Assembly (NCBI GenBank): GCA_963840035.1
Contig: CAWIXE010000001.1
Coordinates: 704,001 to 768,000 of the forward strand
Reading direction: 5' to 3'
Length of the DNA stretch: 64,000 nucleotides
Source of the DNA: a candidate division FCPU426 bacterium
GTDB taxonomy: Bacteria > Oederibacteriota > PGYV01 > Palsa-1178
Made by a program: the position numbers and the translations under genes. Below, piece by piece: positions 4,619 to 27,452 of the stretch. The notes below the pieces were generated by a model. The model was not told the origin of the DNA and did not search any database. It saw only the letters and a program-made list of their open reading frames with translations. Positions within the stretch are counted from its first letter, which is position 1. Every line of letters begins with the position of its first letter.

Positions 4619-4905
4619 GAACAACGAACAATAAACAACGAACAACGAACAATGAACAACGAACAACGAACAATGAACAACGAACAATGAACAACGAACA
4701 ACGAACAACGAACAACGAACAACGAACAACGAACAACGAACAACGAACAACGAACAACGAACAACGAACAACGAACAACGAACAACGAACAACGAACAAC
4801 GAACAACGAACAACGAATAACGAACAACGAACAACGAACAACGAACAACGAACAACGAACAACGAACAACGAACAACGAACAACGAACAACGAACAACGA
4901 ACAAC
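4619..4905 (+). repeat. Tandem heptamer array (GAACAAC)x41
   Basis: 287 bp = 41 units, few variants (GAACAAT, AAACAAC, GAATAAC); ends directly at AGGAGGA RBS. Confidence 0.97.
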
Positions 4906-4915
4906 AGGAGGACTT

Positions 4916-10928: not shown

Positions 10929-12440
10929 ATGAAAAAAATTAGTGTGTGCGGGTGTATTCTTATTTTAGCCCTGTTTATATTTTCCTGCGGGAAAAAATCA
11001 ACGCCTTCGGGCCCGTCCGGGACACCGGGGCAGGCGGAGACTATGACTGTAACCGCGACGCTGACATCGACAGCGCAGCCCACGGGCACGGCCACGGCAA
11101 CGAGAACCGCCACACAGTCAGCCACCACGGAAAACAGCGCTACGCTTACCGCCACGAAAACCCACACCCAGGCCATGTCATCAACCGCGACACCGACGGC
11201 CACTACGACGCCTGTATTCACGATAAAAGTATCGGCCACATACAAATTTGATGATTTATTTTGCGCGGTGCCGGTGCGCAGCATCGACTGCGTAATACTC
11301 AACAATTGGGGCACCGAGGTATTTATCGCAAGTTCAATCATGGTGGACAATCTTTCAGACCCGGCGCCTGCATCGCAAATGCCGGCAACAACCGTTTATG
11401 ACGGGGGATGTTCCTGTTTTAAGATCACTGACTATGGCGGGCATACGGGCATGATACTCATGCCGCCGGAAGGCTGCAACGACAGCCGCATACTGGCTTT
11501 TGCGCCGGGTGATATATTAAGGTTTACTGTAACCATAGCAGGCACAGATACAGTCCTCGAACAGGAAGTGCCGGATATGTCCAGGACAGCCGGCGGGCAT
11601 ACCATACTTATGCCTTCTTCAGGATTTGATTACAGCGTATGTGATACATTTTATGGCTCAGCCTGTGATTCGGGCATAACCCCGCATACTTATACGGTAA
11701 ATCCTTCAAGGCCTTCGTGCACAGATAAAATTAGCGCGTATTTAAATAAAACAACATTCGCGTACGGCGCGGAAATATATACGGAATCTGAAATGTACTA
11801 CAGCATAGCCACGGCTACATCGACTTCTACAGCCACGGCCACGGTGACTCCGACAAACACACCCCAGACAGCCTCGTTTCAGCAGGGCGCGAATCTGTAT
11901 ACGGGGTGCGCGGACGCGTCGCTTCTGAGCTCCTCCCCGACTTTTAACAACGGTTCATGCACAATGATATCCATCGGAAAAAGTGGCACAAGCCTCTCAA
12001 GGGGAGTAATAAAATTCGTACTTACGTCGCTTTCGGGCGCGCAGGTGCAGTCAGCGCTGCTGACGTTTAAACTGAACACAATAATATCCGGCAGCGGAGA
12101 TGTGGAAGCATTCAGGCTGGCGAGGGCTTTTACAGAGGGGAACAAGTGCAATGCGGCAGGGGTAAATGAAGCGTGCTGGACAAAAGCATCAGCCACATCC
12201 TGGACAAATCCCGGCGGTGACTATACGGTGAGCATGGGAAGCGGAAGTTTCAGCGTGGGTTCCACATATCTTACGATGAGCCTCGACCCGGCGGTGGTGC
12301 AGGCATGGATAAACAACTCAGCTGTTAATTATGGGATGCTGCTTAAGACAAAGGAAACAGCGGACGCGGCCGCGCCGGTTTTTACCCAGGATAACGCGAC
12401 CCAGTCAAACAGGCCCGAGCTGGAGATAATATACTACTGA
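10929..12440 (+). CDS. Lipoprotein with Thr-rich linkers, Cys-containing middle domain and DNRLRE domain
   Basis: Lipobox IFSC; WTNPGGDY, VQAWI....NYGMLLK, RPELEIIYY. Confidence 0.75.
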   Translation: MKKISVCGCILILALFIFSCGKKSTPSGPSGTPGQAETMTVTATLTSTAQPTGTATATRTATQSATTENSATLTATKTHTQAMSSTATPTATTTPVFTIKVSATYKFDDLFCAVPVRSIDCVILNNWGTEVFIASSIMVDNLSDPAPASQMPATTVYDGGCSCFKITDYGGHTGMILMPPEGCNDSRILAFAPGDILRFTVTIAGTDTVLEQEVPDMSRTAGGHTILMPSSGFDYSVCDTFYGSACDSGITPHTYTVNPSRPSCTDKISAYLNKTTFAYGAEIYTESEMYYSIATATSTSTATATVTPTNTPQTASFQQGANLYTGCADASLLSSSPTFNNGSCTMISIGKSGTSLSRGVIKFVLTSLSGAQVQSALLTFKLNTIISGSGDVEAFRLARAFTEGNKCNAAGVNEACWTKASATSWTNPGGDYTVSMGSGSFSVGSTYLTMSLDPAVVQAWINNSAVNYGMLLKTKETADAAAPVFTQDNATQSNRPELEIIYY

Positions 12441-12450
12441 AGCGGCGTTT

Positions 12451-12644
12451 GAGAGGGAGCAAGCTCCCTCTCTACAAAAACAAAAAAGATACGGCGGGTT
12501 ATAAATATTTACACCCACTGTAGAGCCGCTGCTTCCGACTTCGCCAAGGCTACGTCGGACAGGTGCTGCGGCTCTACAGTGGGTTATCAAATATTTGCAT
12601 TTAAAACAATTCCAGCCTTGAGCCGCAGCAAGCGGCGGCTCTAC
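12451..12644. repeat. Composite REP unit, copy 2, plus an empty inverted REP at 12620-12644
   Basis: Paralog of 9593-9737; long stem ACCCACTGTAGAGCCGC...GCGGCTCTACAGTGGGT. Confidence 0.85.
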
Positions 12645-12838
12645 AAAATATAAAAAGCGCGTATTTGTCCCCGCCTTAAGTGGCGGGAAGCCGCCTCTCT
12701 GCACAAGAAGCCAATAGCCAATATACTTGTAGCCAATAATTATGGTTTGTACTATTATAATAATACCGCAAAGCGATACCATATCTAATGGCTAAGCGTA
12801 TATTGGCTAAATTTTGTCCGGCCCAAAAGGAGTAAAAC

Positions 12839-13246
12839 ATGCATAAAATGCCCTTTGAAGTGCGATTAAGCGACACCGATGTCACAGGCCAGGTCTACTA
12901 TTCCAAGCCGCTTGAGTGGATGGAATGGTGCCGAGTGGACTGGTTCCAGGCAAAGTACGGAAACTTCATGAAACATGTGGAGGAAACAGGCGTAACTTTT
13001 TTCCCTTCAAAAGTCAGCGTGGATTACAGGAAGCCAATCCTGTTCGGGGATAAACTTCAGATAGAGATGTCCTCAAAGGATATCAAAAAAGTTTCCTTTG
13101 TCCTTGAATATGCCATGAAAAGGCAGGGTGACACCGTGTTACAGGCGGAGGTTTTAATGGTGTGTTTTGATGTTAAGAACAAGAAACTCGCAAAGCTCGA
13201 AGGCGGCATGCTTGAGCACATTGGCGGGATTGCTGTCACGGCGTAG
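12839..13246 (+). CDS. Acyl-CoA thioesterase (4HBT/YbgC family)
   Basis: VRLSDTD..G.VYY, DYRKP..FGD hot-dog fold motifs. Confidence 0.85.
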   Translation: MHKMPFEVRLSDTDVTGQVYYSKPLEWMEWCRVDWFQAKYGNFMKHVEETGVTFFPSKVSVDYRKPILFGDKLQIEMSSKDIKKVSFVLEYAMKRQGDTVLQAEVLMVCFDVKNKKLAKLEGGMLEHIGGIAVTA

Positions 13247-13439
13247 TATATGGCTTAAGTGCGAGGTTGAGCTTGCGGCACGTGCAAGCGGCGGTTCTGC
13301 AAAATCATGAAAGGCCCGGAGTTGATATTTAATAACCTGGCAAATCCGGGAAAATTGAAAGAACTGGCAAATGATATCCCGATGGTGTATAATAAAAAAT
13401 AATTACATTATCGCAGAAAGCCACTTTACGGGGTCATAT

Positions 13440-15287
13440 ATGAAAACAACGACAGGCAGCCGGGGTTTCTTTTTAAAGAGCGTCTTTGTCCTGCTTTATA
13501 CCGCTGCCATAGCCTGCGCCTGTGAGGCGGCCACGACTGCGACATTTACGCCGACAGGCACGGCCACCTTCACTAACACTCCCACCCGAACCGCCATTGT
13601 CTCTTCGATATGGCGGGTAAATGCGGGCGGGCCACTGTATCCGGACAGCTGGGGCAACACCTGGGCCGCGGATACTAATTTTAACAACGGCACCGGACAC
13701 TGTGTGACGATGACTGTTGCAAATACCATTGACAGCGTGCTTTACCAGTGTGAAAGATACGGCAGTCCCTTCACGTACGGTTTTAATGTCCCCGCGGGAA
13801 ATTATCAGGTCACGCTGAAATTCGCGGATTTATTCTGGGAAGCCGCGGGGGAGAGGGTATTTGACGTGTTCATAAACGGCGCGCTGGTGCTGGATAATTT
13901 TGACATTATATCGGATTCCGGGTCCGCTTTTACGGCAGTCAGCAAAGTGTTCAACAACATTGCGCCCGTAAGCGGGGCCATAGCATTACAGTTCGGGCCT
14001 GCGTCAGTTGATAACGCGCAGGTGTGCGCGATACAGATAAATCCCATGCCGCCCGCGCCGACACCGACTAAGACGCCGTGCCTGCCTACCACTATTAACC
14101 CATATATCCGGGTGAATGAAGGAATCTGGTCGCAGAGCAGCAGCGTAACCGTGTTCATGGGCACCGCCGTGAACCTTGGGCCGCAGCCTTTAACCGGCGG
14201 AACGTGGAAATGGACCGGCCCGGCCGGGTTTGTTGCCAATTCGCGGGAAATCAGCAATATTCCGCTGACATACGGCGTCAACACGTATACGGTAGTGCAC
14301 ACTAATTCCTGCGGCGGCCAAAACTCCGTGACTTTTACGGTTACGGTTCTGGTGCCTGTCATAACTGAGGCGGTCGGCGGCTGTGCCGCGGCAATAACCA
14401 CGGACGGAGTCATGAACGAAAGCGAGTGGGATTCAGCGGCATGGAATTCAATATCCAAAATCTGCGAAGGCACCAATCCCGGTAACGTATCAGGAAATTT
14501 CAAGCTTTTGTGGGACACAAAGAACCTATACGCGGGTATTGCCATAAACGACGCTTACCTGAACGCGACACAGGTGGCCTGCGCGAATTATAATGATTCT
14601 GCCGTTGAAATGTACCTTGATATGGCCAATGACCATGGCGCGCAGAGTTACCCGGGCTCTGTGGGAGATTTTCATTTCATGATCAGTTATGACTGCCTGC
14701 AGTTTTGCTTAAACGCCGCGGTGGCCATGGCTCCTTCCGGCATGAAGTACGCCAGCACGCATGATGCCGGCGGGTATGTTATGGAAGTGAAAATTCCCTG
14801 GGTGCTTTTGGGGGTTGTGCCCGCCGTAGGAGATACATATCAGTTTGATTTGCAGGTGGATTTCAACAACGGGACCAGCGAGCGCGTGGGACAGCTTGTC
14901 TGGAACGGCGACGCCAATAACTGGAAAAGTTCGGCTAATTTTGGAAATGTGCGGCTGGGCTATTGCCCGGGCCCGCCCCTCAAAGAATCATTCCATGTTT
15001 TCCCAAACCCCGTCAACCCAAAACAGTCGCAGGCGCGTTTCAATTACAACATTGAAAATGAGTCGGAAATATCCATAGAGATCTTCACCATAAGCGGCAG
15101 CCGCGTAAAAACCGTGCTGAATAAAGTTATAAAACCCGCCGGCCAGCATAATGAGGACGCATGGGACTCGAAAAATGAGTCGGGCAAGGAAGTGCTCTCG
15201 GGCGTTTACTTATGCGTTCTGGAGGTAAAAGACAGGGTCACTGGCGGGACAACAAGGCTCGTAAAGAAGATGGCGGTACTCAGGTGA
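13440..15287 (+). CDS. Secreted non-catalytic protein: malectin domain, Ig-like module, CBM9-like domain, T9SS/FlgD-like CTD
   Basis: RVNAGG...W.AD, YQ.ERY, VTLKFA, GERVFDV (malectin); DG...E.EW, LLWD..NLY, DSAVE, Y.MEVKIPW (CBM9-like); FPNP...WD.KN..G.....GVY...KKMAVLR. Confidence 0.85.
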   Translation: MKTTTGSRGFFLKSVFVLLYTAAIACACEAATTATFTPTGTATFTNTPTRTAIVSSIWRVNAGGPLYPDSWGNTWAADTNFNNGTGHCVTMTVANTIDSVLYQCERYGSPFTYGFNVPAGNYQVTLKFADLFWEAAGERVFDVFINGALVLDNFDIISDSGSAFTAVSKVFNNIAPVSGAIALQFGPASVDNAQVCAIQINPMPPAPTPTKTPCLPTTINPYIRVNEGIWSQSSSVTVFMGTAVNLGPQPLTGGTWKWTGPAGFVANSREISNIPLTYGVNTYTVVHTNSCGGQNSVTFTVTVLVPVITEAVGGCAAAITTDGVMNESEWDSAAWNSISKICEGTNPGNVSGNFKLLWDTKNLYAGIAINDAYLNATQVACANYNDSAVEMYLDMANDHGAQSYPGSVGDFHFMISYDCLQFCLNAAVAMAPSGMKYASTHDAGGYVMEVKIPWVLLGVVPAVGDTYQFDLQVDFNNGTSERVGQLVWNGDANNWKSSANFGNVRLGYCPGPPLKESFHVFPNPVNPKQSQARFNYNIENESEISIEIFTISGSRVKTVLNKVIKPAGQHNEDAWDSKNESGKEVLSGVYLCVLEVKDRVTGGTTRLVKKMAVLR

Positions 15288-16831
15288 GGAAAGAAAAAGC
15301 CTCAGCAGTGAGGCTGTATTTATTCATGCTGTTTTTGCTTTCTTCGGCGGCATTTGCGGCGCCGGGGGATTATGGCACGGAAAATGTATTCATGATCGGA
15401 GCCGGGTCCAGGCCGGATGGCATGGCCGGCGCTTTTACGGCCGTGGCTGATGATCTCTCCGCGATACACTTTAACCCCGCAGGTATGGTAAACATAAAAA
15501 AACAGGAAGTATCCCTTCTATATTATCCGCTCTATGAAGGCGCCTCAATCGGCTCGGCCGCGTACGGGCAGTCCATCCTGAATTTTGGCACGATCGGAGC
15601 CGCTTTTTCCGTGTTTTCCTCGGGCAATATGGAGGGTTATGATGAGGCGGGGGAGCTTACATCTGTTTTCAGCAGCCAGCAGTATAAACTGACGGCCTCA
15701 TACGGGCGTTATCTGGCAGAAGGCCTTTCTGCCGGGGCAAATATCAATATATACTACTCCAATATGTCCAGGTTCAATTACGCGGGATTTGGCGCCGATC
15801 TGGGAGTCCTGTACAAACCTTTTTCTTTTTTTTCCGCGGGATTGATGGCCGGAAATATCATTACGCCGGCTTTTTCCATGCAGTCGGTTACAGAGGCGCT
15901 TGGCCGCAAATACACTCTCGGGCTTCTGGCAAGGCATCAGATCGCGGATTTTGAATTCAAGGCCGCTTTTGACGCTTCTGCCGGCGAAAAGGAAAACTTT
16001 AAAGCAAGGGCCGGCATGGAAGTCAGATGGGCCGGCATAGCGGCTGTGAGGGGCGGTTACAGCGAAGGCGAATTCACTTTCGGGGCGGGGCTGTCGCTAT
16101 ATGACGCGAAATTTGATTACGCGTACATAGCCAACAGGAATTTCGGAAGGATGGACAGGTTCGCGGTTTCATACGCGTTCGGAATGACCATAGATCAGCA
16201 GCGGGCGCAGTGGCGCAGGGCCATATATAATGAAGTGCGCAGGATCGTCGACGCCAGGATCAGGATAAAGATAAAGGAAGAGGCGGAAGCGCACTACAGC
16301 CGGGCATACGGGTATTATCAAAACGGCGAATACGAAGAAGCGCTTGCCGCGGTGGAGAAGTCCCTGGAGTGGAAGCGCGACCATGAACCTTCTATCATGA
16401 TGAAGAATATAATTGAGGAGAAACTTAAGGAAAAGCTCAGTTCAGGAGCAGGCATATCCGGGATAAAGGACGCGTATGTCATAGCCGGCATTGAATTTTA
16501 CGAACAAATGCAGTATGATGAGGCCTTAAAACAGTGGGAACTGGCGTTAAAGGGCAGGCCCGGAAATAAAGCCATTCAATCGCTTATTTTGAAGGCAAGG
16601 AAAGCCATGGCAACAGTTCCCAAAAGCAGTCAAGTGCCGAAGGAACAAAAGGAACTGGCGGACAGGATGTACTATATAGCGGTAAACAGCTATACTTCAG
16701 GCGACCTGAAAGGCGCTATAGAGATGTGGAAAAAAGTCCTTGCAATAGACCCGGAAGACGTCAAAACGCTCAGGGACTTAAGGAAAGCTCAGGCGGAACT
16801 TGAAGAACTCTCCAGGCGGGGAATCGAATGA
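15284..16831 (+). CDS. PorV/PorQ-like outer-membrane beta-barrel fused to C-terminal TPRs
   Basis: GTGA overlap start; IGAGSR..GMAGAFTAVADD.SA..FNPAG, DLG.LY, R.GY, G.G....FDYAY; then three TPR-like helical repeats. Confidence 0.8.
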   Translation: MRKEKASAVRLYLFMLFLLSSAAFAAPGDYGTENVFMIGAGSRPDGMAGAFTAVADDLSAIHFNPAGMVNIKKQEVSLLYYPLYEGASIGSAAYGQSILNFGTIGAAFSVFSSGNMEGYDEAGELTSVFSSQQYKLTASYGRYLAEGLSAGANINIYYSNMSRFNYAGFGADLGVLYKPFSFFSAGLMAGNIITPAFSMQSVTEALGRKYTLGLLARHQIADFEFKAAFDASAGEKENFKARAGMEVRWAGIAAVRGGYSEGEFTFGAGLSLYDAKFDYAYIANRNFGRMDRFAVSYAFGMTIDQQRAQWRRAIYNEVRRIVDARIRIKIKEEAEAHYSRAYGYYQNGEYEEALAAVEKSLEWKRDHEPSIMMKNIIEEKLKEKLSSGAGISGIKDAYVIAGIEFYEQMQYDEALKQWELALKGRPGNKAIQSLILKARKAMATVPKSSQVPKEQKELADRMYYIAVNSYTSGDLKGAIEMWKKVLAIDPEDVKTLRDLRKAQAELEELSRRGIE

Positions 16832-18318
16832 AGAAAAAATATTCAGGAATAAGGCTTGAAATAATGGCGGTTATTTTGTCCCTTACCCTGGCTGTTACAG
16901 CCATCATGAGCTTTATGGTGCTTAACATCCAGAAAAAAAGCCTCACAAACGAGATGGAACTCAGGGGCTTAAGCATGACGAGGAACATAGCGAACAATAT
17001 CTCGGATTTTATGCTCATGAAATACGAACTCGAGGCCGCAAAAATATTGAAAGAGGCGATGCAGAACAAGGGCGTTAAGTACGCTATGGTTGTCGGCCCA
17101 AGCGGCGTAATCCTCGCGCACAACGACATGACGCTGGTAAAAACCGCTTATGCGCCTCCGGGCAGGCTGCTTTATACCACGCCGGGGAAAAACAGCGTTT
17201 ATGTAACTGCGTCCGGCGAAAAAGTGATAGAGTTTACCTCGGCAGTGGTCGCCAAGCGCAAGGCAAAAATAGGCGTTGTACACGCGGGCATATCTTATGA
17301 TCTCATAACAAACGCGCTCAAGAGGACATACTTTGACATAATACTTGTGGCCGTTGTTGCCGTACTTTTAAGTTTGCTTGGCGCTTTCCTGCTGAGCGCC
17401 GCGTTCACAAAACCGATCCACGCGCTTGCCGAAGGCGCGAGGATAGCGGGAATGGGTGATTTAAACCATAAGATCAGCATAAAAAGCAGGAATGAACTCG
17501 GATTGCTGGCGGAGGCTTTCAACAGCATGACCGAGGGTCTGCAAAAAGCGCAGAAAGCCGAGATAGAAAGGCTGGCGCTGGAAAAAGAGCTTGAGATAGC
17601 GTGGAAGATTCAGGACTCCCTGCTGCCAAAGTCATTTCCTGAGATGAAGAAATATGAAGTCGCCGCGTTTTACAAGCCGGCAAAGGAAATCGGCGGGGAT
17701 TACTATGACGTGATACCGCTCTCCGGCAACAGGTTCGGGATGGTGATGGCTGACGTATCGGGTAAAGGAATACCCGCGGCGCTGATTATGACCATGCTCA
17801 GCGGCATATTAAATATGGAAGCAAGGGCGAATCAGGATCCTGTAACCGTGCTGACAAAATTAAACGAAGGCCTGCTCGCAAAAGTCGGGGGCGGCATGTT
17901 CGCGACGATTTTTTACGCTGTGCTTGATACTGTAAGTAATACGATAGAGATGGTTTCCGCAGGACACCATGAAATACTTGTATACAGGCAAGCGGCGGCT
18001 AAGGTCGAATCATACTGCCCCAAAGGCGCTGCCATAGGGATTTTAAACGGCAAAGAGTTTGGGTCAAGGCTGGAAAAGATAACGCTGAAGGCTGAACCGG
18101 GCGATAAATTTTTGCTTTTTACAGACGGCATAAGCGAAGCCAGGGCGGACGGCGGAGGCAGGTTTGGCATGGACAGGGCCGCGCAGTCCCTGCAAAAAAA
18201 CGGCGGCTTGGCGTGCAAGGCGGTGCTCGACGGGCTGCTCGGGGAAGTTGAGAAATTCACAGGCGGCCAGGAACAAAGCGACGATATCGCGGTCCTTTCT
18301 ATAGGAAGAAACGCTTGA
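16828..18318 (+). CDS. Membrane SpoIIE/RsbU-type PP2C phosphatase with periplasmic sensor and HAMP
   Basis: Two TM, HAMP (NELG.LA..FN.M), EIA..IQ.SLLP, GGDYYD, ADVSGKG.PAA, AGH, FTDG.SE, DDI. Confidence 0.93.
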   Translation: MKKKYSGIRLEIMAVILSLTLAVTAIMSFMVLNIQKKSLTNEMELRGLSMTRNIANNISDFMLMKYELEAAKILKEAMQNKGVKYAMVVGPSGVILAHNDMTLVKTAYAPPGRLLYTTPGKNSVYVTASGEKVIEFTSAVVAKRKAKIGVVHAGISYDLITNALKRTYFDIILVAVVAVLLSLLGAFLLSAAFTKPIHALAEGARIAGMGDLNHKISIKSRNELGLLAEAFNSMTEGLQKAQKAEIERLALEKELEIAWKIQDSLLPKSFPEMKKYEVAAFYKPAKEIGGDYYDVIPLSGNRFGMVMADVSGKGIPAALIMTMLSGILNMEARANQDPVTVLTKLNEGLLAKVGGGMFATIFYAVLDTVSNTIEMVSAGHHEILVYRQAAAKVESYCPKGAAIGILNGKEFGSRLEKITLKAEPGDKFLLFTDGISEARADGGGRFGMDRAAQSLQKNGGLACKAVLDGLLGEVEKFTGGQEQSDDIAVLSIGRNA

Positions 18319-18331
18319 GCGGAGGTGGACA

Positions 18332-18685
18332 ATGGCATTTGAGATCAGGGAAAATGAAGACGGTGAAATAATCATAGTGGCGCTTTTCGGCGAGCTGGAT
18401 TCCTCGTCGGTTGCGGCTTTTAGCCTGGGGTTTAAGGATATTATTGGCAAGCGAGGCCCTAAGAAATATGTCCTGGATTTAAAAGGGCTTGAATTCATAA
18501 GCTCCGCCGGCTGGACCGCGTTTTTGAACGAATTCAAGCAGCTCCGGGCGTCAGGCGGGGATTTGAAGCTTGCCGCCATGCAGCAGGACGCGAAAAGAGT
18601 CTATTCGCTTGTGGGCATAGACGGGGTGATAGAAAGTCACGAAACCGTGAAAGAGGCTGTGAAGAGTTATGCCGGGAAAAACTGA
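18332..18685 (+). CDS. STAS anti-sigma factor antagonist
   Basis: GELD, DLKGLEFISSAG phospho-Ser motif, GGDLKL. Confidence 0.92.
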   Translation: MAFEIRENEDGEIIIVALFGELDSSSVAAFSLGFKDIIGKRGPKKYVLDLKGLEFISSAGWTAFLNEFKQLRASGGDLKLAAMQQDAKRVYSLVGIDGVIESHETVKEAVKSYAGKN

Positions 18686-19115
18686 AATAATAAGCGCGGA
18701 AATCAAAGTGGACGCGGCAGAGGGCAATCTCAGCCTGATAAGGAAATTCATCGGCGGCAACATGAAAAGCACGGGCTTCCCGGGGAAAAAAATATCGGCG
18801 CTGGCAGTGTCGGTAACAGAGCACTGCGAAAACCTGATTAAGCACGCTTACGCCAAAAAAACCGGTAAAGTCGCGCTGAAGCTGGCGCTTAAATACCCGG
18901 AGGCAAAAATAACGGCATGGGATTCCGGGCCGCGGTTTAACATGAAGGAACAAAAGATACCTGATACCTCCCGGAGAATAAAAAAAGGCCTCGGCGGGAA
19001 AATGGGGATTAAGACAATACTGGCATTATGCGACGCGGTCGAATACAAAAGAATAAACGGCCGCAATGAAAATACTTTCATAGTCCGGGCGAAAAGCCTA
19101 AGAAAAGGAAAATAA
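18669..19115 (+). CDS. RsbW/SpoIIAB-like anti-sigma Ser kinase (HATPase_c)
   Basis: E.CENLIKHAY, DSGPRF, GLGG.MG. Confidence 0.85.
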   Translation: MPGKTEIISAEIKVDAAEGNLSLIRKFIGGNMKSTGFPGKKISALAVSVTEHCENLIKHAYAKKTGKVALKLALKYPEAKITAWDSGPRFNMKEQKIPDTSRRIKKGLGGKMGIKTILALCDAVEYKRINGRNENTFIVRAKSLRKGK

Positions 19116-19118
19116 TAA

Positions 19119-20135
19119 ATGGCAACGATAAAGGACGTGGCAAAGATAGCGGGGGTCTCCTATAATACCGTTTCTTTTGTGGTCAACGGAGTGGATAAGG
19201 TCGCGCCCGCGACAAGGGAAAAGGTCCTGAAGGCAATAGAAAAACTGCATTACAAGCCAAACAAGACCGCGAGGGCCTTAGTAGGCGGTAAAGCGGACTC
19301 CATAGCCTTCATAAGCACCAGGTTCACCTCTGTATTCGGCATGAACATATTAAGGGAAATCGAAGACGGCGTTCACTTAGCCGGGCTTTCATCCAACTAT
19401 GACCTCATACCGTACTCAACAAGGGGCGAAGAGGAATTCAAGGAACAGATAATAGACTCCATAATACGCAACAGAAAAGCGGACGCCATAATCATGCTGG
19501 GCATAAAACCCGGCCCGGAAAACATGTCGGAACTCAAAAAGAACGGCATACCGGTGGTCGTCATAGACGGAACAATATCCGGCGGACACAGCGTAAAGTG
19601 CGACAATGAAAAAGGCGCTTACCTTGCGACAGATTACCTTATAAAATCCGGCAGGAAAAAAATTGCGTACTTAGGCATGTCCAAAACAGGCGGAGAAACA
19701 TGGCCGTCGATAATAGAAAGGGAGCAGGGCTATAAAAAAGCGCTCACTGAAAAAAACATCGGCATAAATGACCGCCTGATTGTCACAGTAAACAACAACT
19801 ACATAAACGAAGGCAGGGCCGTCATGCATACGCTGCTGAAGGCAAACAAGGACATAGACGCAGTCTTCTGCGGAGCCGGCGACAGCACGGCCATCGGAGT
19901 TGTGAACGCAATAAAGGAAGCGGGACTTAGCGTCCCAAAAGACATAGCCGTAATAGGCTACGACGACATCCCGGTAGCGTCAGCCATAACGCCGTCGCTG
20001 ACTACAGTAAGGCAACCCGTGGAAAAAATGGGCAATGAAGCTTTTTTAATGGCGCTTGAAGCCATGCAGGGAAGGCTGAAAGAGCCAAAGAACCTGGTAT
20101 TTGAGCCGGAGTTGATTGTAAGGGAATCGGCGTAA
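19119..20135 (+). CDS. LacI family transcriptional regulator
   Basis: TIKDVAKIAGVS..TVS, YKPN..AR.L, P.DIAVIGYDD, LTTVRQP, LIVRES. Confidence 0.95.
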   Translation: MATIKDVAKIAGVSYNTVSFVVNGVDKVAPATREKVLKAIEKLHYKPNKTARALVGGKADSIAFISTRFTSVFGMNILREIEDGVHLAGLSSNYDLIPYSTRGEEEFKEQIIDSIIRNRKADAIIMLGIKPGPENMSELKKNGIPVVVIDGTISGGHSVKCDNEKGAYLATDYLIKSGRKKIAYLGMSKTGGETWPSIIEREQGYKKALTEKNIGINDRLIVTVNNNYINEGRAVMHTLLKANKDIDAVFCGAGDSTAIGVVNAIKEAGLSVPKDIAVIGYDDIPVASAITPSLTTVRQPVEKMGNEAFLMALEAMQGRLKEPKNLVFEPELIVRESA

Positions 20136-20219
20136 GTGGGGAAAGGGAATTCGACAAGACAATCTTACATCGGCAATGAAATAAGGTAATTAACCCGGGG
20201 TCTGATTTGGTTTTGTTTA

Positions 20220-20247
20220 TTGACAAACAGTATACAAGATGTATACT
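20220..20247 (+). promoter_or_regulatory. Sigma70-type promoter with palindrome AGTATACA-N3-TGTATACT
   Basis: TTGACA-16-TATACT; palindrome 20229-20247 also at 39552-39570. Confidence 0.7.
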
Positions 20248-20307
20248 TTATTTGATTCTTATGAGGGAATCAAATAACCCGTGCAAGGCGGGACAATAGG
20301 GGAAAAT

Positions 20308-21126
20308 ATGGATAGTCTACCGGTTGTTTTTGAGAATTTTGAGATACGCAGGGTTTATGATGAAAAGAAAGAGGTTTGGTTTTTTTCTGTAGTTGATATT
20401 GTGGGGGCGCTTATACAGCAGAAGGATTTTCAGGCGGCGAGGAAGTATTGGAATAAGCTTAAGGAAAGACTGGTAAAGGAAGGAAATCAGTCGGTGACAA
20501 ATTGTCACCAACTGAAAATGGAAGCGGCAGACGGAAAAAAGTACCTTACAGATGTGGCGGATCCGGAGGTCCTGCTTCGCCTCATCCAGTCCGTCCCGAG
20601 CCCCAAGGCTGAGCCAATAAAACTATGGCTTGCCAAGGTCGGTTACGAAAGGATGCAGGAACTGGCTGACCCGGAGCGTTCCTTAAACCGCGCCAGGGAA
20701 AACTGGCAAAGGCACGGCAGAAGTGAAAAGTGGATACAGCAGAGGATGATGAGCCAGGAAACCAGGAACAAACTCACCGACTACTGGAAAGACAACGAAA
20801 TAACACAAAAAGAAGAATACGCCATACTGACAAACATAATACACAAAGAATGGTCCGGACTGGATGTAAAAACCCATAAAATCCTGAAAGGCCTAAAAAG
20901 CCAAAACCTGCGGGACCATATGAGCGAGGCGGAGCTCATTTTTACTGCGTTAGCCGAACTCTCCACAAGGCAGATAGCACAGGCAGAGAAAGCAAAGGGC
21001 TTAAAGCATAACAGCCGCACCGGAAAAAAAGGCGGGAAGATAGCGGGTAAGGCAAGAAAAGAGCTGGAGAAAAAAACCGGCAGAAGTATTATAACGGGAG
21101 ACAACTTTCTTCCTCCAAAGAAGTAA
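20308..21126 (+). CDS. Bro-N domain protein
   Basis: IRRV......WFFSVVD, RKYWNKLK.RL, LK..A.DGK...TD, RLIQS.PSPKAEP.KLWLA, NLRDHM..EL.F..LAE. Confidence 0.88.
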   Translation: MDSLPVVFENFEIRRVYDEKKEVWFFSVVDIVGALIQQKDFQAARKYWNKLKERLVKEGNQSVTNCHQLKMEAADGKKYLTDVADPEVLLRLIQSVPSPKAEPIKLWLAKVGYERMQELADPERSLNRARENWQRHGRSEKWIQQRMMSQETRNKLTDYWKDNEITQKEEYAILTNIIHKEWSGLDVKTHKILKGLKSQNLRDHMSEAELIFTALAELSTRQIAQAEKAKGLKHNSRTGKKGGKIAGKARKELEKKTGRSIITGDNFLPPKK

Positions 21127-21135
21127 GATAAAGGT

Positions 21136-21400
21136 TTGGTACTGGTACGCTATTGCGTGAAGAAAAATGCGGGGCTTGTTATACACCGTGAAATCGGCAA
21201 CAGCATGGAATGGTCGTTAAATGAGGACGGCTACGCTTATAAAACGCTTGGGCCATTGTATGAGACTCTTTTTAGGGCTCCGGCGCCGCTTGAGAAGATA
21301 AAGGAAGTCATCAAAGAGAACCTGCCAAAAAACATGGTCCTGGAGGCGAAGTTATTCGGTTCCATGGCTAGGGGCGATTACGGCGGAAGCAGTAACGTCT
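21136..21400 (+). pseudogene. Truncated nucleotidyltransferase (MNT-type) remnant
   Basis: LFGSMARGD....SN motif, then frame runs into REP sequence; no convincing start. Confidence 0.55.
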
Positions 21401-21424
21401 GTGGCGGTCTTAATGGCTGGGGCT

Positions 21425-21448
21425 GGGCGATTCGTGAATCGCCCCTAC
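21425..21448 (-). repeat. GTAG-REP (GTAGGGGCGATTCACGAATCGCCC)
   Basis: Identical copy near 44899-44922; interrupted copy at 58271-58317. Confidence 0.8.
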
Positions 21449-21562
21449 AAATGAATGAATCATGGACATAAATACTGTTTTCTGAGACGTTAATTCATTA
21501 AAATATAACACCTTTATTTTAAGGGCTTTTATGGAATTAAGCCTTATTTTATAAAAATATCC

Positions 21563-21673
21563 TTGACAATCAGACTTAAATCGGGTAAATTTGTATTGAA
21601 GATATGAACGTTCATATAAATCAATTTACTTAGGAAAAGTATATTTAAAGCGCAAGAATATGAACGTTCATAT
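21563..21673 (+). promoter_or_regulatory. Xylanase promoter with two identical LacI-type operators
   Basis: TTGACA-17-TAAATT; perfect palindrome ATATGAACGTTCATAT at 21602-21617 and 21658-21673. Confidence 0.85.
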
Positions 21674-21742
21674 GATGATAAAGAAAATAACGGAGGATAA
21701 AAAATAAAAATGAAAATAAAAATTTCAAAGGGGAGTGGGAAA

Positions 21743-24241
21743 ATGAAAAAAATCTTTTTGTTCCTGATCGTGCTTTTGTCTTTTGTTGTTCCTGTCTTAA
21801 ACGCGGCGACCTGTACGGTTGACGCGAATGCCACGTACCAGTACATACGCGGCATAGGAGCTTCCAGCGCCTGGTATGGTTTGGCCGGCGCGAGCGCTGC
21901 ATCGCTTTTTGCGGATGACAACGTCAACGGCCACATCGGAATGTCCATGTTGAGGGCCAGGATAGATCCAAACGGAAGCCACGCAGCTGAAGTCAATAAC
22001 CTGGTCGCTGCCAAGGCCGCCAATCCCAACCTTCTTTTATGGGCCACAGAGTGGTCGCCGCCAGCGCAGTACAAGGCTAATAATAATGTAAACGGGCCGG
22101 CAACCAACAATACCTTCCTTGGCGCCTCATCCGGCGCGCCTAACAGCGCGGATACGGGTTATGCCAATTACCTGGTCTCATATATACAGTACGCGAAAAG
22201 CCGCGGCATAGACCTTTACGCCATTTCAGTCCAGAACGAACCAAACTGGAACCCGGACTATGAAGCCTGCCTTTGGACAGCGGGGCAGTTTGAAGTTTTT
22301 GCGCGCGCGTTTAAAAGCGCGCTCACAACCGCCGGGCTTACGACCAAGATCATGATACCTGAGCCGATTAATCCGGGGGGATTAAACCTGGCTTCCGCAT
22401 CCATGAACAACGCGACAACAGCCTCCTATATTAATATAATCGGAACGCACCTTTATGGCGGGATGCCCAACGCCCTTAATACTTACGGCTTCACACAGCT
22501 GACAAACCAGGAATTCTGGGAGACAGAGATATCAGCCAATACGACCGATATAGCGGGCGCATTGCAGCAGGCGGGCTGGGTACAGACGTGCCTGGTGAAC
22601 GCAAGCATGAACGCTTTCCACTACTGGTGGATACAGGATATGGCCACCAACGGCAACCTGAACATAAAGGCTTTTGCCCTGGGCAATTACAGCAAGTTCA
22701 TAAGGCCGGGATATTACCGCATGGGAGCGACAGCCGCCCCGACATCCGGCGTGCAGGTCAGCGCATTTAAGAACACCAATAATTCCACGCCGTCAAAGAT
22801 TGTCTTTGTGGCGATTAACAACAACTCTTCGGCAACCAGCCAGACATTCAGCTTAAACGGCCTCAACGTAACATCGGTTACGCCGTGGCGTACAGACGCC
22901 AGCACAAACCTGGTGGCACAGGCCGCGGTAAGCGTTTCAGGAAACAGTTTTACTTACAGCCTTCCGGCAAGAAGCATAGTTTCCTTTGTGGGAACAAACG
23001 GCACCACCGGGCCTACAGCCACAAACACGGCAATAGTCCCTACATCAACATCCACACCGTGTGCGGCAACAGCTATCGTGCCTTATCTTCAGGCTGACGC
23101 AGGCGCATGGCAGCAGGTTGCCAGCGTTACTGTAGCTTCCACCACCTCCGCTGTTAACCTCGGGCCTCAGCCGGCAACCGGCGGTTCCTGGAGCTGGACC
23201 GGGCCTAACGGTTTCACATCAACTTCGCGTGAACTTCTCGGTATTGCGTTAAGCGCCGGGAATAACGTATTCACGGCAACATATACGAACGCGTGCGGGG
23301 CCAAGTCCACGCAGGCTTTCACTATTATAGTATCAGGTTCGGCCACATCAACGGCCACGGCTGTTGTGACGCCGGTAAACACGCCGATAACGAACTTACT
23401 TGGCGGCAATCCGCTCATGTACCAGAAATACACCGCTGACCCGACAGCCTGCTGGTTCAACGGCAGGATGTATATTTACACTTCGCATGATAAAACAGGC
23501 GCGACAGGTTACGATATATCCGATGTAACCGTCATGTCATCAGATGACCTTGTTAACTGGACCGACGAAGGCGAAGCGGTCAAGGCGTCAGACACATCAT
23601 GGGCGGGGCTGACTTACGCGCCGACGAGCGTTTACAGAAACGGATATTACTATGTATATTTCGGCAACGGCGGAGGCAGCATAGGCGTGGTCAGGGGCAC
23701 GAGCCCGACAGGCCCGTTCACAGACCCTGTAGGACACGCGATTGTAACCGGCTCCACGCCGGGCTGCAGCGGCATGACATACGTATTTGACCCCGCTGTA
23801 TTTGTTGACGACGACGGACAGGCTTACATGTATTTCGGAGGAGGCGGGCCGGGCAACGCAAGGGTTATAAAGCTCAACGCCGACATGATAAGCGTCAATG
23901 GTTCTGCCGTGACGATAGACGCCCCAAGGTATTTTGAGGCTCCATTCATGAATAAGAGAAACGGGATATATTATTACTCGTACTCGACTGATTTCTCGGC
24001 GTCACCGGCTGCGACAATTGACTACATGACTAGCAGCAACCCGATGACAGGCTTTGCATACAAAGGAACCATACTCGGGAATCCATCGGATAACTGCGGC
24101 AACAACAACCATGCTTCGATTGTGAACATAGGGACCGACTGGTACATAGCTTACCATACCAGGAGGCTTCTCAAACATAAACCTCGGCAACTGCAACGGC
24201 ATATACCAGAGGAGCGTGGCTTTAGACAGGCTCTACTTTAA
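21743..24241 (+). CDS. Multimodular xylanase, 5' part: GH30, Ig-like module, GH43 (frameshift near 24170)
   Basis: Signal peptide; WSPP, SVQNEP, WETE (GH30); ADP, FDP, FEAP, NNNH, WYIAYH (GH43). Confidence 0.88.
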   Translation: MKKIFLFLIVLLSFVVPVLNAATCTVDANATYQYIRGIGASSAWYGLAGASAASLFADDNVNGHIGMSMLRARIDPNGSHAAEVNNLVAAKAANPNLLLWATEWSPPAQYKANNNVNGPATNNTFLGASSGAPNSADTGYANYLVSYIQYAKSRGIDLYAISVQNEPNWNPDYEACLWTAGQFEVFARAFKSALTTAGLTTKIMIPEPINPGGLNLASASMNNATTASYINIIGTHLYGGMPNALNTYGFTQLTNQEFWETEISANTTDIAGALQQAGWVQTCLVNASMNAFHYWWIQDMATNGNLNIKAFALGNYSKFIRPGYYRMGATAAPTSGVQVSAFKNTNNSTPSKIVFVAINNNSSATSQTFSLNGLNVTSVTPWRTDASTNLVAQAAVSVSGNSFTYSLPARSIVSFVGTNGTTGPTATNTAIVPTSTSTPCAATAIVPYLQADAGAWQQVASVTVASTTSAVNLGPQPATGGSWSWTGPNGFTSTSRELLGIALSAGNNVFTATYTNACGAKSTQAFTIIVSGSATSTATAVVTPVNTPITNLLGGNPLMYQKYTADPTACWFNGRMYIYTSHDKTGATGYDISDVTVMSSDDLVNWTDEGEAVKASDTSWAGLTYAPTSVYRNGYYYVYFGNGGGSIGVVRGTSPTGPFTDPVGHAIVTGSTPGCSGMTYVFDPAVFVDDDGQAYMYFGGGGPGNARVIKLNADMISVNGSAVTIDAPRYFEAPFMNKRNGIYYYSYSTDFSASPAATIDYMTSSNPMTGFAYKGTILGNPSDNCGNNNHASIVNIGTDWYIAYHTRRLLKHKPRQLQRHIPEERGFRQALL

Positions 24242-27200
24242 CGCTGACGGCACCATACAGAAAGTGGTAACGACAACAACAGGCGTAAACGCGCTGAAAA
24301 CCGTGAACCCGTATACCACATTAAAAGCGGTTATGATGGCAAAAGAATCAGGGATAACCACTGAAATATGCACAGAAGGCGGGCTGAATGTAGCGAACAT
24401 TGAGAATAATGACTCGATACAGGTCAAGAACCTCGAGTTCGGCACCGGCGCTACAGGATTTAACGCACGCGTGGCGAGCGCGACCAGCGGCGGAAACATA
24501 GTGATACACCTTGACAGCGCGACAGGGCCGGTCATCGGCACGTGCGCTGTGACAGGCACCGGCGGATGGCAGACATGGCAGACCAAGTCGTGCGCGATAT
24601 CCGGCGCGACAGGAAGACACGATGTATACTTTGTGTTTACCGGCGGGTCAGGATTCCTGTTCAATTTCGCGTCCTACAGCTTTACACAGGGAAGCGTAAC
24701 AGCGACACCTGTAGTAACAAATACAAACACACCGGTTCCTCCTACAGCGACTCCGACAACACCGGTGGCCACAAGCACGCCGGTTGTACCTACAGCTACT
24801 CCGACAACACCGGTTATCACGGGCGGATTAAGGGACTTAGCCGCAGCCAAAGGGCTGCTGCTCGGCTCAGAGGCTACGAACAGCCCGCTGCAGAATGAAG
24901 CCATATACAGGACCACGCTTGCCAAGGAATTCAACTGGATGGGCGGGGAGAATGAGTTCAAGGCTTATCTTTGGAACGGGCCTTACTCCTATAATTTTGG
25001 GACCACTGATTATTACAAGAATTTCAGGGATGCTAATAATATGCAGATGAGGGGACATGTCCTGGTTTATAACGCGGTTGTGCCAAGCTGGATGAGCAGC
25101 GGCAGCTATACAAACACCCAGATTGGCGACATGCTCAAGGCATACGTGCTGGCCATGGCCGGCAGGTACAGCGGCAAGATGAATGAATGGGATGTTGTAA
25201 ACGAGGCAGTCTCAGACGGCGCGCCGTATGGGTATAAGTCCAACGACTTCTGGTACCAGAAGCTTGGCGATTACATCCCGCAGGCGTTCCAGTGGGCAAG
25301 GCAGGCAGACCCGAACGCGAAGCTTGTCTACAATGATTACGGCAACGAAGGCTTAAACGCAAAGTCAAACTATATATACACCATGGTCAGCAATATGAAA
25401 AACCAGAACATTCCGATCGACGGTGTGGGATGGCAGTGCCACGTAAGCAGCAGCTGGCGCTTAAACGACGACATATGGGAAAACGCGCAGAGGCTCAGCG
25501 CGCTTGGCCTGCAGATATCGGTTACCGAACTCGATGTAGCCATACCGGTCCCTGTTGACGCGGCAAAACTGCAGTCGCAGGCAAAGGCGTATGCCGACAT
25601 GGCTTTCCTTTGCATGACGCATCCGAGCATAAAGAGGATGTTCCTGTGGGGATTCACGGACAAGTATTCGTGGATACCCGGCTTTACGAACGGGGCATCG
25701 GACGCGGCCCTGATATATGACGCGAATTACGCCAAAAAACCGGCGTATTACGCGATAGAGTCGGTCTTAAAGCTGCAGCCTGTGGACGGCATTTACAATG
25801 GCGGCTTTGAAAGCTCCATTTACTGCTGGAATGAAAGCTCGGGCGGCACCATAGCGGAAGAGACCAGCGTGGTACACAGCGGCACAAAATCAGCCAGGGT
25901 TGAGAACAGGACACAGGCATACCAGGGCATAGGCCAGTATGTGCTGCCTTATCTTCTGAAGAACGGACAGGGCAACTACAGCGCAGGCGTGTGGGCAAGG
26001 CTCGCCTCCGGCACTGACACGGCAAAGCTGACCCTCTATATAAAGGATGACGCGGGCAGCAAGTATATATCGCTCGGTTCAGCCGCGGTAAACAGCACAC
26101 AGTGGAGCCAGGTAAACGGTTCGGCAAATGTCACATGGACCGGGCTTTTAAGGGTCGCAAGGCTGTTTGTTGAAACATCCACCGGGACATCGAATTTCTA
26201 TGTGGACGACATGAGCTTTGCAACGCAGGGAGTTACAACACCTACAAACACGCCGGTAGTACCGACAGCGACACCTACAACACCGGTGCCGACAAACACG
26301 CCGGTAGTACCGACAGCGACACCTACAACACCTGTGCCGACAAACACGGCCATAGTTCCTACAGCAACACCTACAACACCGGTGCCGACAAATACGGCCA
26401 TAGTTCCGACAGAGACACCGACAACACCTGTACCGACAAACACGGCGATAGTTCCTACAGCTACGCCTATAACACCGGTACCTACAAACACGGCAATAGT
26501 GCCGACAGCGACACCGACAACGCCGGTACCCACAAACACGCCGATAACACCGACGGCAACACCGACAACGCCTGTGCCCACCAGCACACCGATAACACCG
26601 ACACCGACCACACCGGTAACAGCAAATATTTCAATACAGCTTAAAAGCGGAGACACCAACAGTTCTACAAGCAGCCCGCATCCGCAGATAAGGATAATAA
26701 ACACTGGCTCAACAGCGCTTAACATGAATACTGTTGAGGCCCGTTACTGGTTCAGCTATGACGGCGCAGGCCAGTCATTACAGGCTTTTGTTGACTGGGC
26801 CGGCAGGATGCCGCAGGGAGCCGGGGTCAGCGGAAATGTCCAGATTTCGGTCGTCGCTAAAACCCAGGGAACCCAGACACATTACATGAGCATCAAATTC
26901 ACCGGAGGGCTCATGCTGCAGCCTGGGGAATATGTTGAAGTCCAGACAAGGTTCAACAAAAATGACTGGTCATCCATGCTGCAGGCCAATGACTGGAGCT
27001 TCGCATCATACACAGGATTTACAACATGGAGCAGGATAACCGGGTATGTGAACGCGGCAAGAGTATGGGGAGAAGAACCTAACGCGGCAATATCAGGCCA
27101 GGCGGCGCAGGTTTCCAGCGCGATGAGCTATCCGAATCCGTCAACAGGCGGAACGACAAATCTTTCTTACACCATAGCGGGCACGGGCGCGTCATCGCTT

Positions 27201-27452
27201 GATATGAATTACACGATACCTGACCCTGACGCGAAAGTATCGCTGAGGATATATACGGTATCAGACAGGCTGGTGTGGGGAAAGGAAATCAGCGGAGTGC
27301 AGAATGTATCCGCGGGAAAGCATATTGTAAGCTGGGACGGAAAGACGTCCGGCGGCGTTGAACTTGCAGCCGGGACATACACGCTGAATGTAAGGGTAAT
27401 CTCAAACGGAAAGATAAGCAGCAAGGATTTTAAGATAATAATGCTGAAGTAA
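24171..27452 (+). CDS. Multimodular xylanase, 3' part: GH43 tail, CBM6, GH10, CBM22/CBM4-9, P/T linker, CBM3, T9SS-like CTD
   Basis: YQRSVALDRLYFNADGTI GH43 tail; TGGWQTW (CBM6); ENEFK, RGHVLV, WDVVNE, YNDY, VTELD, WGFTD (GH10); NGGFE; RYWF, QANDWSF (CBM3); YPNP...KIIMLK. Confidence 0.88.
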   Translation, partial: SNINLGNCNGIYQRSVALDRLYFNADGTIQKVVTTTTGVNALKTVNPYTTLKAVMMAKESGITTEICTEGGLNVANIENNDSIQVKNLEFGTGATGFNARVASATSGGNIVIHLDSATGPVIGTCAVTGTGGWQTWQTKSCAISGATGRHDVYFVFTGGSGFLFNFASYSFTQGSVTATPVVTNTNTPVPPTATPTTPVATSTPVVPTATPTTPVITGGLRDLAAAKGLLLGSEATNSPLQNEAIYRTTLAKEFNWMGGENEFKAYLWNGPYSYNFGTTDYYKNFRDANNMQMRGHVLVYNAVVPSWMSSGSYTNTQIGDMLKAYVLAMAGRYSGKMNEWDVVNEAVSDGAPYGYKSNDFWYQKLGDYIPQAFQWARQADPNAKLVYNDYGNEGLNAKSNYIYTMVSNMKNQNIPIDGVGWQCHVSSSWRLNDDIWENAQRLSALGLQISVTELDVAIPVPVDAAKLQSQAKAYADMAFLCMTHPSIKRMFLWGFTDKYSWIPGFTNGASDAALIYDANYAKKPAYYAIESVLKLQPVDGIYNGGFESSIYCWNESSGGTIAEETSVVHSGTKSARVENRTQAYQGIGQYVLPYLLKNGQGNYSAGVWARLASGTDTAKLTLYIKDDAGSKYISLGSAAVNSTQWSQVNGSANVTWTGLLRVARLFVETSTGTSNFYVDDMSFATQGVTTPTNTPVVPTATPTTPVPTNTPVVPTATPTTPVPTNTAIVPTATPTTPVPTNTAIVPTETPTTPVPTNTAIVPTATPITPVPTNTAIVPTATPTTPVPTNTPITPTATPTTPVPTSTPITPTPTTPVTANISIQLKSGDTNSSTSSPHPQIRIINTGSTALNMNTVEARYWFSYDGAGQSLQAFVDWAGRMPQGAGVSGNVQISVVAKTQGTQTHYMSIKFTGGLMLQPGEYVEVQTRFNKNDWSSMLQANDWSFASYTGFTTWSRITGYVNAARVWGEEPNAAISGQAAQVSSAMSYPNPSTGGTTNLSYTIAGTGASSLDMNYTIPDPDAKVSLRIYTVSDRLVWGKEISGVQNVSAGKHIVSWDGKTSGGVELAAGTYTLNVRVISNGKISSKDFKIIMLK
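26241..26618 (+). repeat. Coding tandem repeat, about 8 x 48 bp (PTNTxxxPTATPTTPV)
   Basis: Visible in the translation. Confidence 0.9.

Follow-up and report, generated by a model that had tools for sequence, protein, structure and literature searches.

A 64,000-nt stretch of a candidate division FCPU426 bacterium (contig CAWIXE010000001.1, positions 704,001 to 768,000; the whole stretch is called the window below) carries on its forward strand, at 13440-20135, a cassette of six genes encoding a lectin-like, likely surface-displayed protein, a PorV-like outer-membrane barrel with a tail of tetratricopeptide repeats (TPR), a membrane sensor phosphatase, the two proteins of a partner switch and a LacI-family repressor. 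This conserved arrangement likely represents a new class of trans-envelope relay: its parts are known, its wiring is new. A physical relay across the envelope is, in our judgement, probable; whether the full chain runs from glycan to xylanase gene is an evenly balanced question. The evidence so far is all computational.

Architecture and conservation of the cassette

The six open reading frames (ORFs) are present at the positions claimed in an earlier note on this DNA, and its description of six coupled genes, with their junctions and domains, is borne out by the sequence, Pfam and NCBIfam. Genes 1 and 2 share a GTGA overlap (15284-87) and genes 2 and 3 an ATGA overlap (16828-31); genes 3 and 4 are 13 nt apart, genes 4 and 5 overlap by 17 nt, and a gap of 3 nt precedes gene 6. 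The features are as follows (window coordinates, strand).

13364..13393, +, promoter-like site of the cassette, sigma-70-type, with extended -10 TGTATAAT; the -10 word is common to 11 of 12 orthologous upstream regions (one mismatch allowed)
13440..15287, +, gene 1, 615 aa: signal peptide (by eye), Thr-rich linker, malectin, Ig-like and CBM9 domains, and a C-terminal domain (CTD) like the type A sorting domain in type IX secretion systems (T9SS)
14979..15284, +, sorting-like CTD of gene 1, last 102 residues, a 7-strand sandwich (AlphaFold2 mean predicted local distance difference test, pLDDT, 97.5)
15284..16831, +, gene 2, 515 aa: PorV/PorQ-family 14-strand barrel with plug, 44-residue helix, three helical (TPR) pairs
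16661..16786, +, distal TPR of gene 2 (aa 460-501), Cache contact according to complex prediction
16828..18318, +, gene 3, 496 aa: transmembrane helix TM1, periplasmic sCache_3 (aa 31-170), TM2, HAMP, PP2C with intact metal-binding motifs
18332..18685, +, gene 4, STAS protein of anti-anti-sigma type, motif SSAGW with S58 as inferred phospho-site (Pfam STAS; TIGR00377 over cut-off)
18669..19115, +, gene 5, RsbW-like Ser kinase (HATPase_c_2; E51-x3-N55, D85-x-G, G-rich box), isoelectric point ~10
19119..20135, +, gene 6, LacI-family repressor (Pfam LacI) of a cassette-specific clade, likely output
21563..21591, +, promoter-like site of the xylanase gene, sigma-70-type, TTGACA-17-TAAATT; TTGACA conserved in orthologous loci
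21602..21617, unstranded, operator copy 1, perfect palindrome ATATGAACGTTCATAT, just downstream of the promoter
21658..21673, unstranded, operator copy 2, same palindrome
21710..27452, +, likely target, GH30-GH43-CBM6-GH10-CBM4/9-CBM3-CTD xylanase gene, in two frames here

No operator-like palindrome was found upstream of the cassette itself, and no Rfam match in window positions 12400-22000. The host genome (3.46 Mb, three contigs) is 98% complete. Judging from a single gene, a LacI paralog with 72% identity to three proteins of that name, the host probably belongs to Candidatus Goldbacteria.

The window copy, which we call cassette A, is present in 15 of the 99 phylum genomes, always in the window order; a 16th cargo match was discounted, being part of another protein. 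The earlier note had proposed a neighbourhood search, and in it the order proved conserved: since 11 of the 14 other cassette-bearing genomes, which come from six families, have all six genes in this order on a single contig, and the remaining three loci end at contig edges and contradict nothing, the arrangement is not a chance one. Variants exist: one genome (G010) has a cargo of 1196 aa with CBM9 and a split LacI, another (G008) a split sensor.

A lectin-like cargo and its probable barrel

The product of gene 1 is likely a non-catalytic sugar binder displayed at the surface. The Pfam scan gave Malectin (E 2e-26) and CBM9_1 (E 2e-28) and found no catalytic family; a profile of 11 orthologs, searched against PDB, matched only malectins, CBM9 domains and two malectin-bearing proteins. 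Domains and linkers cover the whole chain and therefore no catalytic domain is evident, in agreement with the earlier note, which had seen malectin and CBM9-like domains and no enzyme. To that description we add the Ig-like domain between malectin and CBM9, which is missing in one ortholog (L014; G022). The two-aromatic clamp of CBM9, Y384/W495, is invariant in 11 of 11 aligned orthologs and aligns to W71/W175 of TmCBM9-2; in the accessible part of PMC8280721 the clamp of CkCBM9.3 is a Tyr/Trp pair, as in gene 1. Taking the six site residues of Xenopus malectin as reference (PMC13335976, in the portion available), we saw that four of the six are kept or conservatively changed: E105, Y107, F/Y132 and D191 are retained, W133 is variable and Tyr67 is not conserved.

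The CTD has PorZ (5m11) and PorU (6za2) as best Foldseek matches, with ScpA, FlgD and unrelated Ig-like folds close behind, and gene 1 passes the type A sorting domain model TIGR04183 marginally (23.7 versus a cut-off of 23). Thus, the T9SS-like CTD predicted earlier is found by both sequence and fold, as in type A T9SS cargo. PorV binds CTD cargo in the T9SS of Bacteroidota, and gene 2 encodes a barrel of that fold. In its AlphaFold2 model (pLDDT 87.5, 41 alignment rows) the first fold matches are PorV chains 8gl6_F and 6h3i_F (Z 32.1 and 31.3), followed by FadL (Z 29.8). Gene 2 passes the PorV/PorQ family model NF033709 (106.5 versus 90) and fails NF033710, the equivalog of PorV as general T9SS shuttle (36.8 versus 250); in Pfam, UPF0164 and TPR families are over cut-off and PorV (E 0.005) is under it. 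The PorV-like barrel with added TPRs that had been recognised by its sequence is thus supported by the modelled fold, the top PorV matches and NF033709.

About 40 PorV/PorQ-type barrels with varied periplasmic tails are encoded in the host genome; 21 follow a CTD match, one of which is spurious, and a CTD gene lies directly upstream of 63 of the 84 sensor-linked barrels. Judging from this adjacency, the gene 1 cargo probably docks on the gene 2 barrel. As to the rest of the secretion machinery, the genome has a SprA-like gene (2165-aa homolog, E 1.5e-55, 188 versus a cut-off of 200); neither PorU sortase nor the GldM/PorM motor gave a match over cut-off, control genomes being equally silent with these models, and PF14349 had no match anywhere.

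The score of FadL, close to that of PorV, counts against this assignment, and one could read gene 2 as a FadL-type importer: a small molecule would enter the periplasm and be bound by the Cache domain, with the TPR holding both proteins close. FadL superposes with a root-mean-square deviation of 2.6, PorV with 4.7 over 278 aligned residues; Treponema FadL-like barrels with TPR tails have been proposed as importers (PMC8407342, available part). Gene 2 also keeps the NPA hatch motif; however, hatch and 14 strands do not single out FadL, because both are common to PorV. The Cache domain, for its part, keeps H98 in 89% of sequences, but two of the three carboxylate-binding positions of DcuS, R107, H110 and R147, are replaced in it, and the DcuS-type arginines are absent. 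With the PorV/PorQ family model passed and CTD genes preceding so many barrels, we regard an importer as very unlikely.

Predicted contact between the TPR tail and the Cache domain

Pfam assigns sCache_3_2, HAMP and SpoIIE to gene 3. The earlier note had supposed that the TPRs reach this sensor and had suggested a complex prediction. For the TPR tail (aa 296-515) with the Cache domain (aa 31-170), using an 84-row alignment for each partner, the prediction gave an interface score (ipSAE) of 0.75 (runs 0.73, 0.77, 0.75), while the best of three controls had 0.00. The mark used for this score is reached by 116 of 157 solved pairs and by 2 of 215 mismatched ones, a calibration roughly valid with the alignments used. 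The runs agreed in 100% of contacts, with partner pLDDT of at least 87. In the model the last TPR (aa 460-472, 494-501) meets the Cache domain at its membrane-distal tip (aa 63-75, 100-105); a distal TPR seated on the Cache apex would be the geometry that the topology demands. At the centre of the interface, L68 is present in 78 of 84 sequences, Y470 in 77 of 84 (F in five more), and V467 is V, I or L in 84 of 84; the three are among the best-kept positions of both alignments. Mean conservation of the Cache interface is modestly raised (0.44 versus 0.37 in the remainder). We are therefore rather confident in the prediction that the gene 2 tail binds the gene 3 Cache domain. PDB sequence match listings had no apparent complex of this kind, only isolated sensor domains and generic TPRs.

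Rows left out of alignments A5 and A6 were L146 and L148 (no PP2C), L037 and L059 (intervening gene), L194 (broken barrel) and L018 (split sensor). Three further measures were set aside. The mirror-tree correlation of TPR and Cache (r 0.91) was attributed to shared inheritance. For the 25 contacts predicted best, mutual information was elevated (mean z 0.62, 0.2% of random sets); as it draws on the alignments that the model itself used and takes no account of kinship, it was not counted. Retention of Y470 in unlinked barrels (4 of 15) was too kin-laden for counting.

Cargo and output as interchangeable parts of a general module

In the host genome, each of the five Cache-HAMP-PP2C genes belongs to a barrel-TPR cassette; these cassettes are of the following types.

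Cassette A: the window copy, glycan-binding cargo, six genes
Cassette B: 1299-aa cargo, STAS, a different LacI, no RsbW
Cassettes C and D: ~2700-aa cargo, extra STAS and RsbW
Cassette E (L004; G000:C3:438752-442482): barrel-TPR, then a fused RsbW-Cache-HAMP-PP2C protein extended at its C-terminus; neither cargo nor STAS

Cassette E lies between an RNase R-like gene and his genes and is conserved across the order. The glycan cassette is therefore one specialised copy of a general module in which cargo and output are interchangeable, and the frame of the earlier note was too narrow.

The link between tail and sensor extends further. Among 80 loci picked by PP2C motifs alone (kept from 601 motif matches in all species genomes), a barrel-TPR lies directly upstream in 7 of the 11 with this Cache type versus 2 of the 69 without a Cache match. 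Records of these loci include Ignavibacteria, Calditrichia and Zixibacteria, where cargo and outputs are different; L075 was not counted as another phylum, being the window's own cassette-C type. In a set of 110 Cache+PP2C genes, the 2.5 kb upstream held a barrel-TPR in 85 cases, a TPR gene in nine and neither in 16, a count biased upward because the barrel score had served to fetch 60 of the loci. In loci that encode barrel and TPR separately (L036, L041, L050), it is the TPR gene that remains beside the sensor.

Several observations weigh against the relay as we propose it. On the TPR side, the interface is on average no better conserved (0.42) than the remaining distal TPR (0.48). Mean-field direct coupling analysis of the 84 paired TPR/Cache rows (effective number 72) was blank: its top z of 7.6 falls within the range of shuffles, 6.0 to 8.5. 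As for paralog-specific pairing, a close cousin of the true partner may also pass the complex prediction. Tail lengths within the host genome spread from 170 to 266 aa, which is awkward for a rigid bridge. The 16 Cache+PP2C genes with neither a barrel-TPR nor a TPR gene upstream stand outside the pattern; conversely, 22 of 110 barrel-TPR tails were unpaired with a sensor according to our script (three of them are cassettes that the script missed), mostly members of one conserved subfamily in which a ~790-aa CTD protein is followed by a barrel-TPR with no linked sensor. Cassette E has no cargo or STAS gene, and the one cargo of cassettes C/D that was searched had no CBM match. Finally, kin in these co-occurrence counts are not independent.

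The 790-aa CTD protein and barrel-TPR pairs (G000:C1:1135283-1139428, which is L005, L198, L202, L206 and others) could signal in trans. At L151:7454-10245 and L152:8778-10346 a related Cache-HAMP is fused to HD and to adenylate/guanylate cyclase domains; such proteins are possible trans partners of TPR tails.

It could be supposed that co-expression alone keeps these genes together and that a physical relay does not exist; unlinked barrel-TPRs, unlinked sensors and the blank coupling analysis would fit. However, the barrel-TPR adjoins this particular Cache-PP2C type across several phyla and a complex of the two is predicted, so that we give co-expression alone scarcely any credence.

Partner switch and its likely output

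RsbU, RsbV and RsbW form a partner switch, and their hallmarks are found in genes 3 to 5: intact PP2C motifs, a STAS phospho-site Ser and the ATP-binding boxes of a GHKL kinase. Pfam confirms the earlier assignment of genes 3-6 as sensor-HAMP-SpoIIE, STAS, RsbW-like kinase and LacI. The SSAGW motif is present in 60 of 73 STAS matches of paired loci; gene 5 stays under the RsbW and SpoIIAB equivalog cut-offs.

There is no sigma gene in the operon, and no protein of the 98% complete genome exceeds the SigB/F/G cut-off (TIGR02980; one control does), so the LacI is the likely output. Among 84 cassettes, the gene after STAS/RsbW is a LacI in 13, a TPR protein in 28 and another gene in 17 (including MCP-like, GGDEF and HATPase proteins); this variable position resembles an output slot. 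Two separate LacI clades fill it, one of them in the cassette without RsbW.

By sequence, gene 6 is the probable repressor of the xylanase gene, a reading that we hold with good confidence. It has the helix-turn-helix (HTH) and effector domain of LacI/GalR local repressors, and a palindrome with central CG lies nearby. Copies 1 and 2 are the only exact ATATGAACGTTCATAT sites in the genome; three shuffles gave 0 to 1 sites within one mismatch. Of the 99 phylum genomes, 14 have the 14-base operator core; each of these is one of the 15 that carry cassette A, and the core is in 0 of the 84 others. In 11 of the 14 it lies at most 5 kb downstream of the gene-6 ortholog. The xylanase gene is near most orthologous cassettes. 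The conserved doubled operator before it supports the earlier suggestion that the cassette may control the adjacent carbohydrate-active enzyme (CAZyme) genes.

Another LacI, at 27699, was rejected as general operator binder: it occurs in 8 of 24 genomes of the order and is missing from eight operator-bearing ones. Other order-wide LacIs remain candidates.

The frame of the xylanase gene breaks near 24170-24216 and is continuous in orthologs, which points to an assembly error or a recent lesion. A second LacI-type palindrome, TTTACCGGTAAA-like (G000 C2:1603077, C2:1604204, C1:5516, C1:5598; L018, L019), flanks another LacI and precedes a cassette B cargo paralog and two CAZyme genes. Six of 22 LacI-family proteins are without HTH (G000 C1:291074, C1:916467, C1:919740, C2:218213, C2:774400, C3:87465). 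A metagenome scan with a divergent gene-6 relative gave only LacIs of ~30% identity.

The weakest step is action of the STAS/RsbW switch on the gene 6 LacI, for which we see the chances as equal. Pocket residues of gene 6 are mostly kept (N163, D255, D282, Q299), and largely so across 27 close orthologs, but Arg201 is Lys in 5 of these 27 and Arg in 53 of 53 paralogs, and D282 and Q299 are each replaced in four of six divergent members. The helix-I surface, on the other hand, has a conservation of 0.94 versus 0.77 for the remainder. A relaxed pocket beside an unusually conserved helix-I surface was counted as suggestive of switch control. HPr-like phosphate binding by gene 6 was rejected, the Arg and Lys of CcpA aligning to L310 and E314. 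Two points speak for a simpler repressor: since the pocket is kept and the CcpA Arg/Lys are absent, gene 6 may simply sense sugar, and loop insertions like those of gene 6 occur in other LacI paralogs as well.

Such a repressor is part of another possible account, in which the relay does sense glycan while the LacI is ordinarily sugar-inducible and the switch acts on a distant RpoD, RpoS-like sigma, FliA or extracytoplasmic function (ECF) sigma factor. The 15 sigma-region-2 matches in the genome would be available as targets, RsbW-type kinases normally bind a sigma factor, for which papers on Chlamydia Rsb and Pseudomonas HsbR can be cited, and most cassettes have no LacI. These points have to be set against the recurrence of LacI from two clades in the same slot, once where RsbW is absent, and against the contrast between pocket and helix-I surface in the gene 6 clade. 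We consider a distant target unlikely.

Proposed mechanism

In the mechanism that we favour, the cassette would be expressed constitutively, and the lectin would be exported and held on its own PorV-like barrel, where it would bind chain ends of insoluble xylan or cellulose. Load or a conformational change would pass from the barrel through the long helix and the distal TPR to the membrane-distal Cache tip, and from there through TM2 and HAMP to the PP2C phosphatase. Dephosphorylated STAS, directly or by capturing RsbW, would lift LacI repression; release of LacI from the doubled palindrome would allow the GH30-GH43-GH10 enzyme to be made. The polarity given to the switch here is a guess.

That glycan binding is the signal appears slightly favoured. 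Alternatively, a real relay may report cargo occupancy or the state of the envelope (secretion feedback, membrane spacing), the lectin being an adhesin whose delivery is monitored. Cassette E, cargo-less and placed among housekeeping genes across the order, would suit such a role, as would the giant non-CBM proteins of other cassettes, and a similar feedback model was proposed for PorA (PMC7712824, in the part available). Yet the clade cargo is always a glycan binder, its CBM9 clamp staying invariant even where the architecture changed (L016, L014); the cassette tracks the xylanase operator, and a CBM35 is found in a cassette B cargo. Occupancy sensing thus seems to us improbable, about as much so as the distant sigma target.

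One could speculate further, and with somewhat less than even confidence, that a widespread class exists in which T9SS-type surface receptors sit on dedicated barrels whose TPR grips Cache-HAMP-PP2C sensors, with a sigma-less switch and interchangeable outputs; here a force-bearing lectin would report attachment to insoluble xylan, and STAS would be a direct anti-repressor of LacI, turning the multi-domain xylanase on.

If true, this would be Gram-negative envelope signalling with neither a TonB-dependent receptor nor an anti-sigma factor, and a partner switch ending in a LacI repressor. PorV-like barrels would gain a receptor role beyond shuttling, and detection of insoluble substrates by polysaccharide degraders outside Bacteroidota and Clostridia would be explained.

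Other features of the window and genome

A low-complexity ORF at window positions 4606-4923 consists of repeated NNEQRTT units and is an intergenic tandem repeat. A 35-bp repeat at 28746-28780 has more than 20 matches in the genome and is REP-like. At 38156-43260 there is a low-GC island with IS30-like transposase, cytosine methylase and DUF4928/NOV_C genes. At G000:C3:~13800-21000, fragmented ORFs with a high-GC look, unlike the remaining genome, may reflect contamination or a chimera.

Comparison with known systems

In clostridial RsgI/sigma-I and in TonB-dependent FecA/FecR/FecI systems an external polymer or ligand controls transcription of nearby catabolic genes; RsgI unites an anti-sigma domain, a transmembrane helix and an extracellular CBM in one chain, beside sigI. 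Pfam and NCBIfam found no RsgI-type domain or sigma gene in the window cassette. The cassette has no part in common with these systems, possessing no anti-sigma membrane protein, TonB-dependent receptor or operon sigma, and the earlier view of a functional analogy to RsgI/sigma-I built from different parts therefore holds. Chlamydia RsbU/V/W is reportedly a membrane sensor phosphatase switch with a periplasmic Cache domain.

The Bacteroidota T9SS shares the PorV barrel fold (6h3i, 8gl6) and the type A CTD fold; the SprA-like translocon gene of the host genome falls short of its cut-off. Here, in contrast, there are ~40 barrels, of which many form a one-to-one pair with a cargo gene, and a TPR tail is added; one-to-one pairing of cargo and barrel is a feature of type B CTD/PorP pairs. 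A barrel with TPR has in itself already been described: Treponema pallidum TP0548, TP0859 and TP0865 are FadL-like 14-strand barrels with an NPA hatch and a periplasmic helical TPR tail, read as nutrient importers (PMC8407342). The accessible part of that paper shows neither the CTD cargo nor the sensor phosphatase of the window cassette.

CcpA is a LacI-family repressor controlled by HPr-Ser46-P via helices I and IX (PMC10287919, PMC6155242, both in part). The helix I/IX regions of gene 6 likewise carry clade-specific invariant residues; unlike CcpA, gene 6 has no phosphate-binding Arg/Lys, and its proposed partner is STAS or RsbW, not HPr. Pseudomonas SiaABCD resembles the cassette in its membrane HAMP-PP2C, kinase and STAS-type substrate, and it has a non-sigma output, a diguanylate cyclase (10.1101/674879); in the available portion of that source no outer-membrane partner or surface cargo is seen. 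With a score of 81 versus 700, gene 3 falls well short of the SiaA cut-off, and a Pfam scan found no GGDEF in the window cassette, although GGDEF is present after STAS in L068, L084 and L032.

We found no published description of the PorV-barrel/TPR/PP2C/partner-switch wiring in a search that covered subscription papers partially and main texts without supplements; PMC7031533 mentions T9SS in a reference only. The nearest described case is PorA-PorV-PorXY of Porphyromonas gingivalis (PMC7712824), where, in the part of the paper available, PorA is a non-catalytic lectin-like CTD protein on PorV, surface-to-inner-membrane signalling is proposed, and the bridge across the periplasm is open, the authors invoking another mediating factor. 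The window cassette, if our interpretation is true, would suggest how a lectin on PorV and a sensor in the inner membrane may be joined, the link that is missing there. The two systems share the non-catalytic lectin-like CTD cargo and the proposed signalling to an inner-membrane sensor; whereas in the PorA system PorV serves as general shuttle and a histidine kinase is the sensor that feeds an ECF sigma factor (SigP), here a dedicated barrel has a TPR tail predicted to sit on the sensor, which is a PP2C phosphatase, and the output is likely a LacI repressor.

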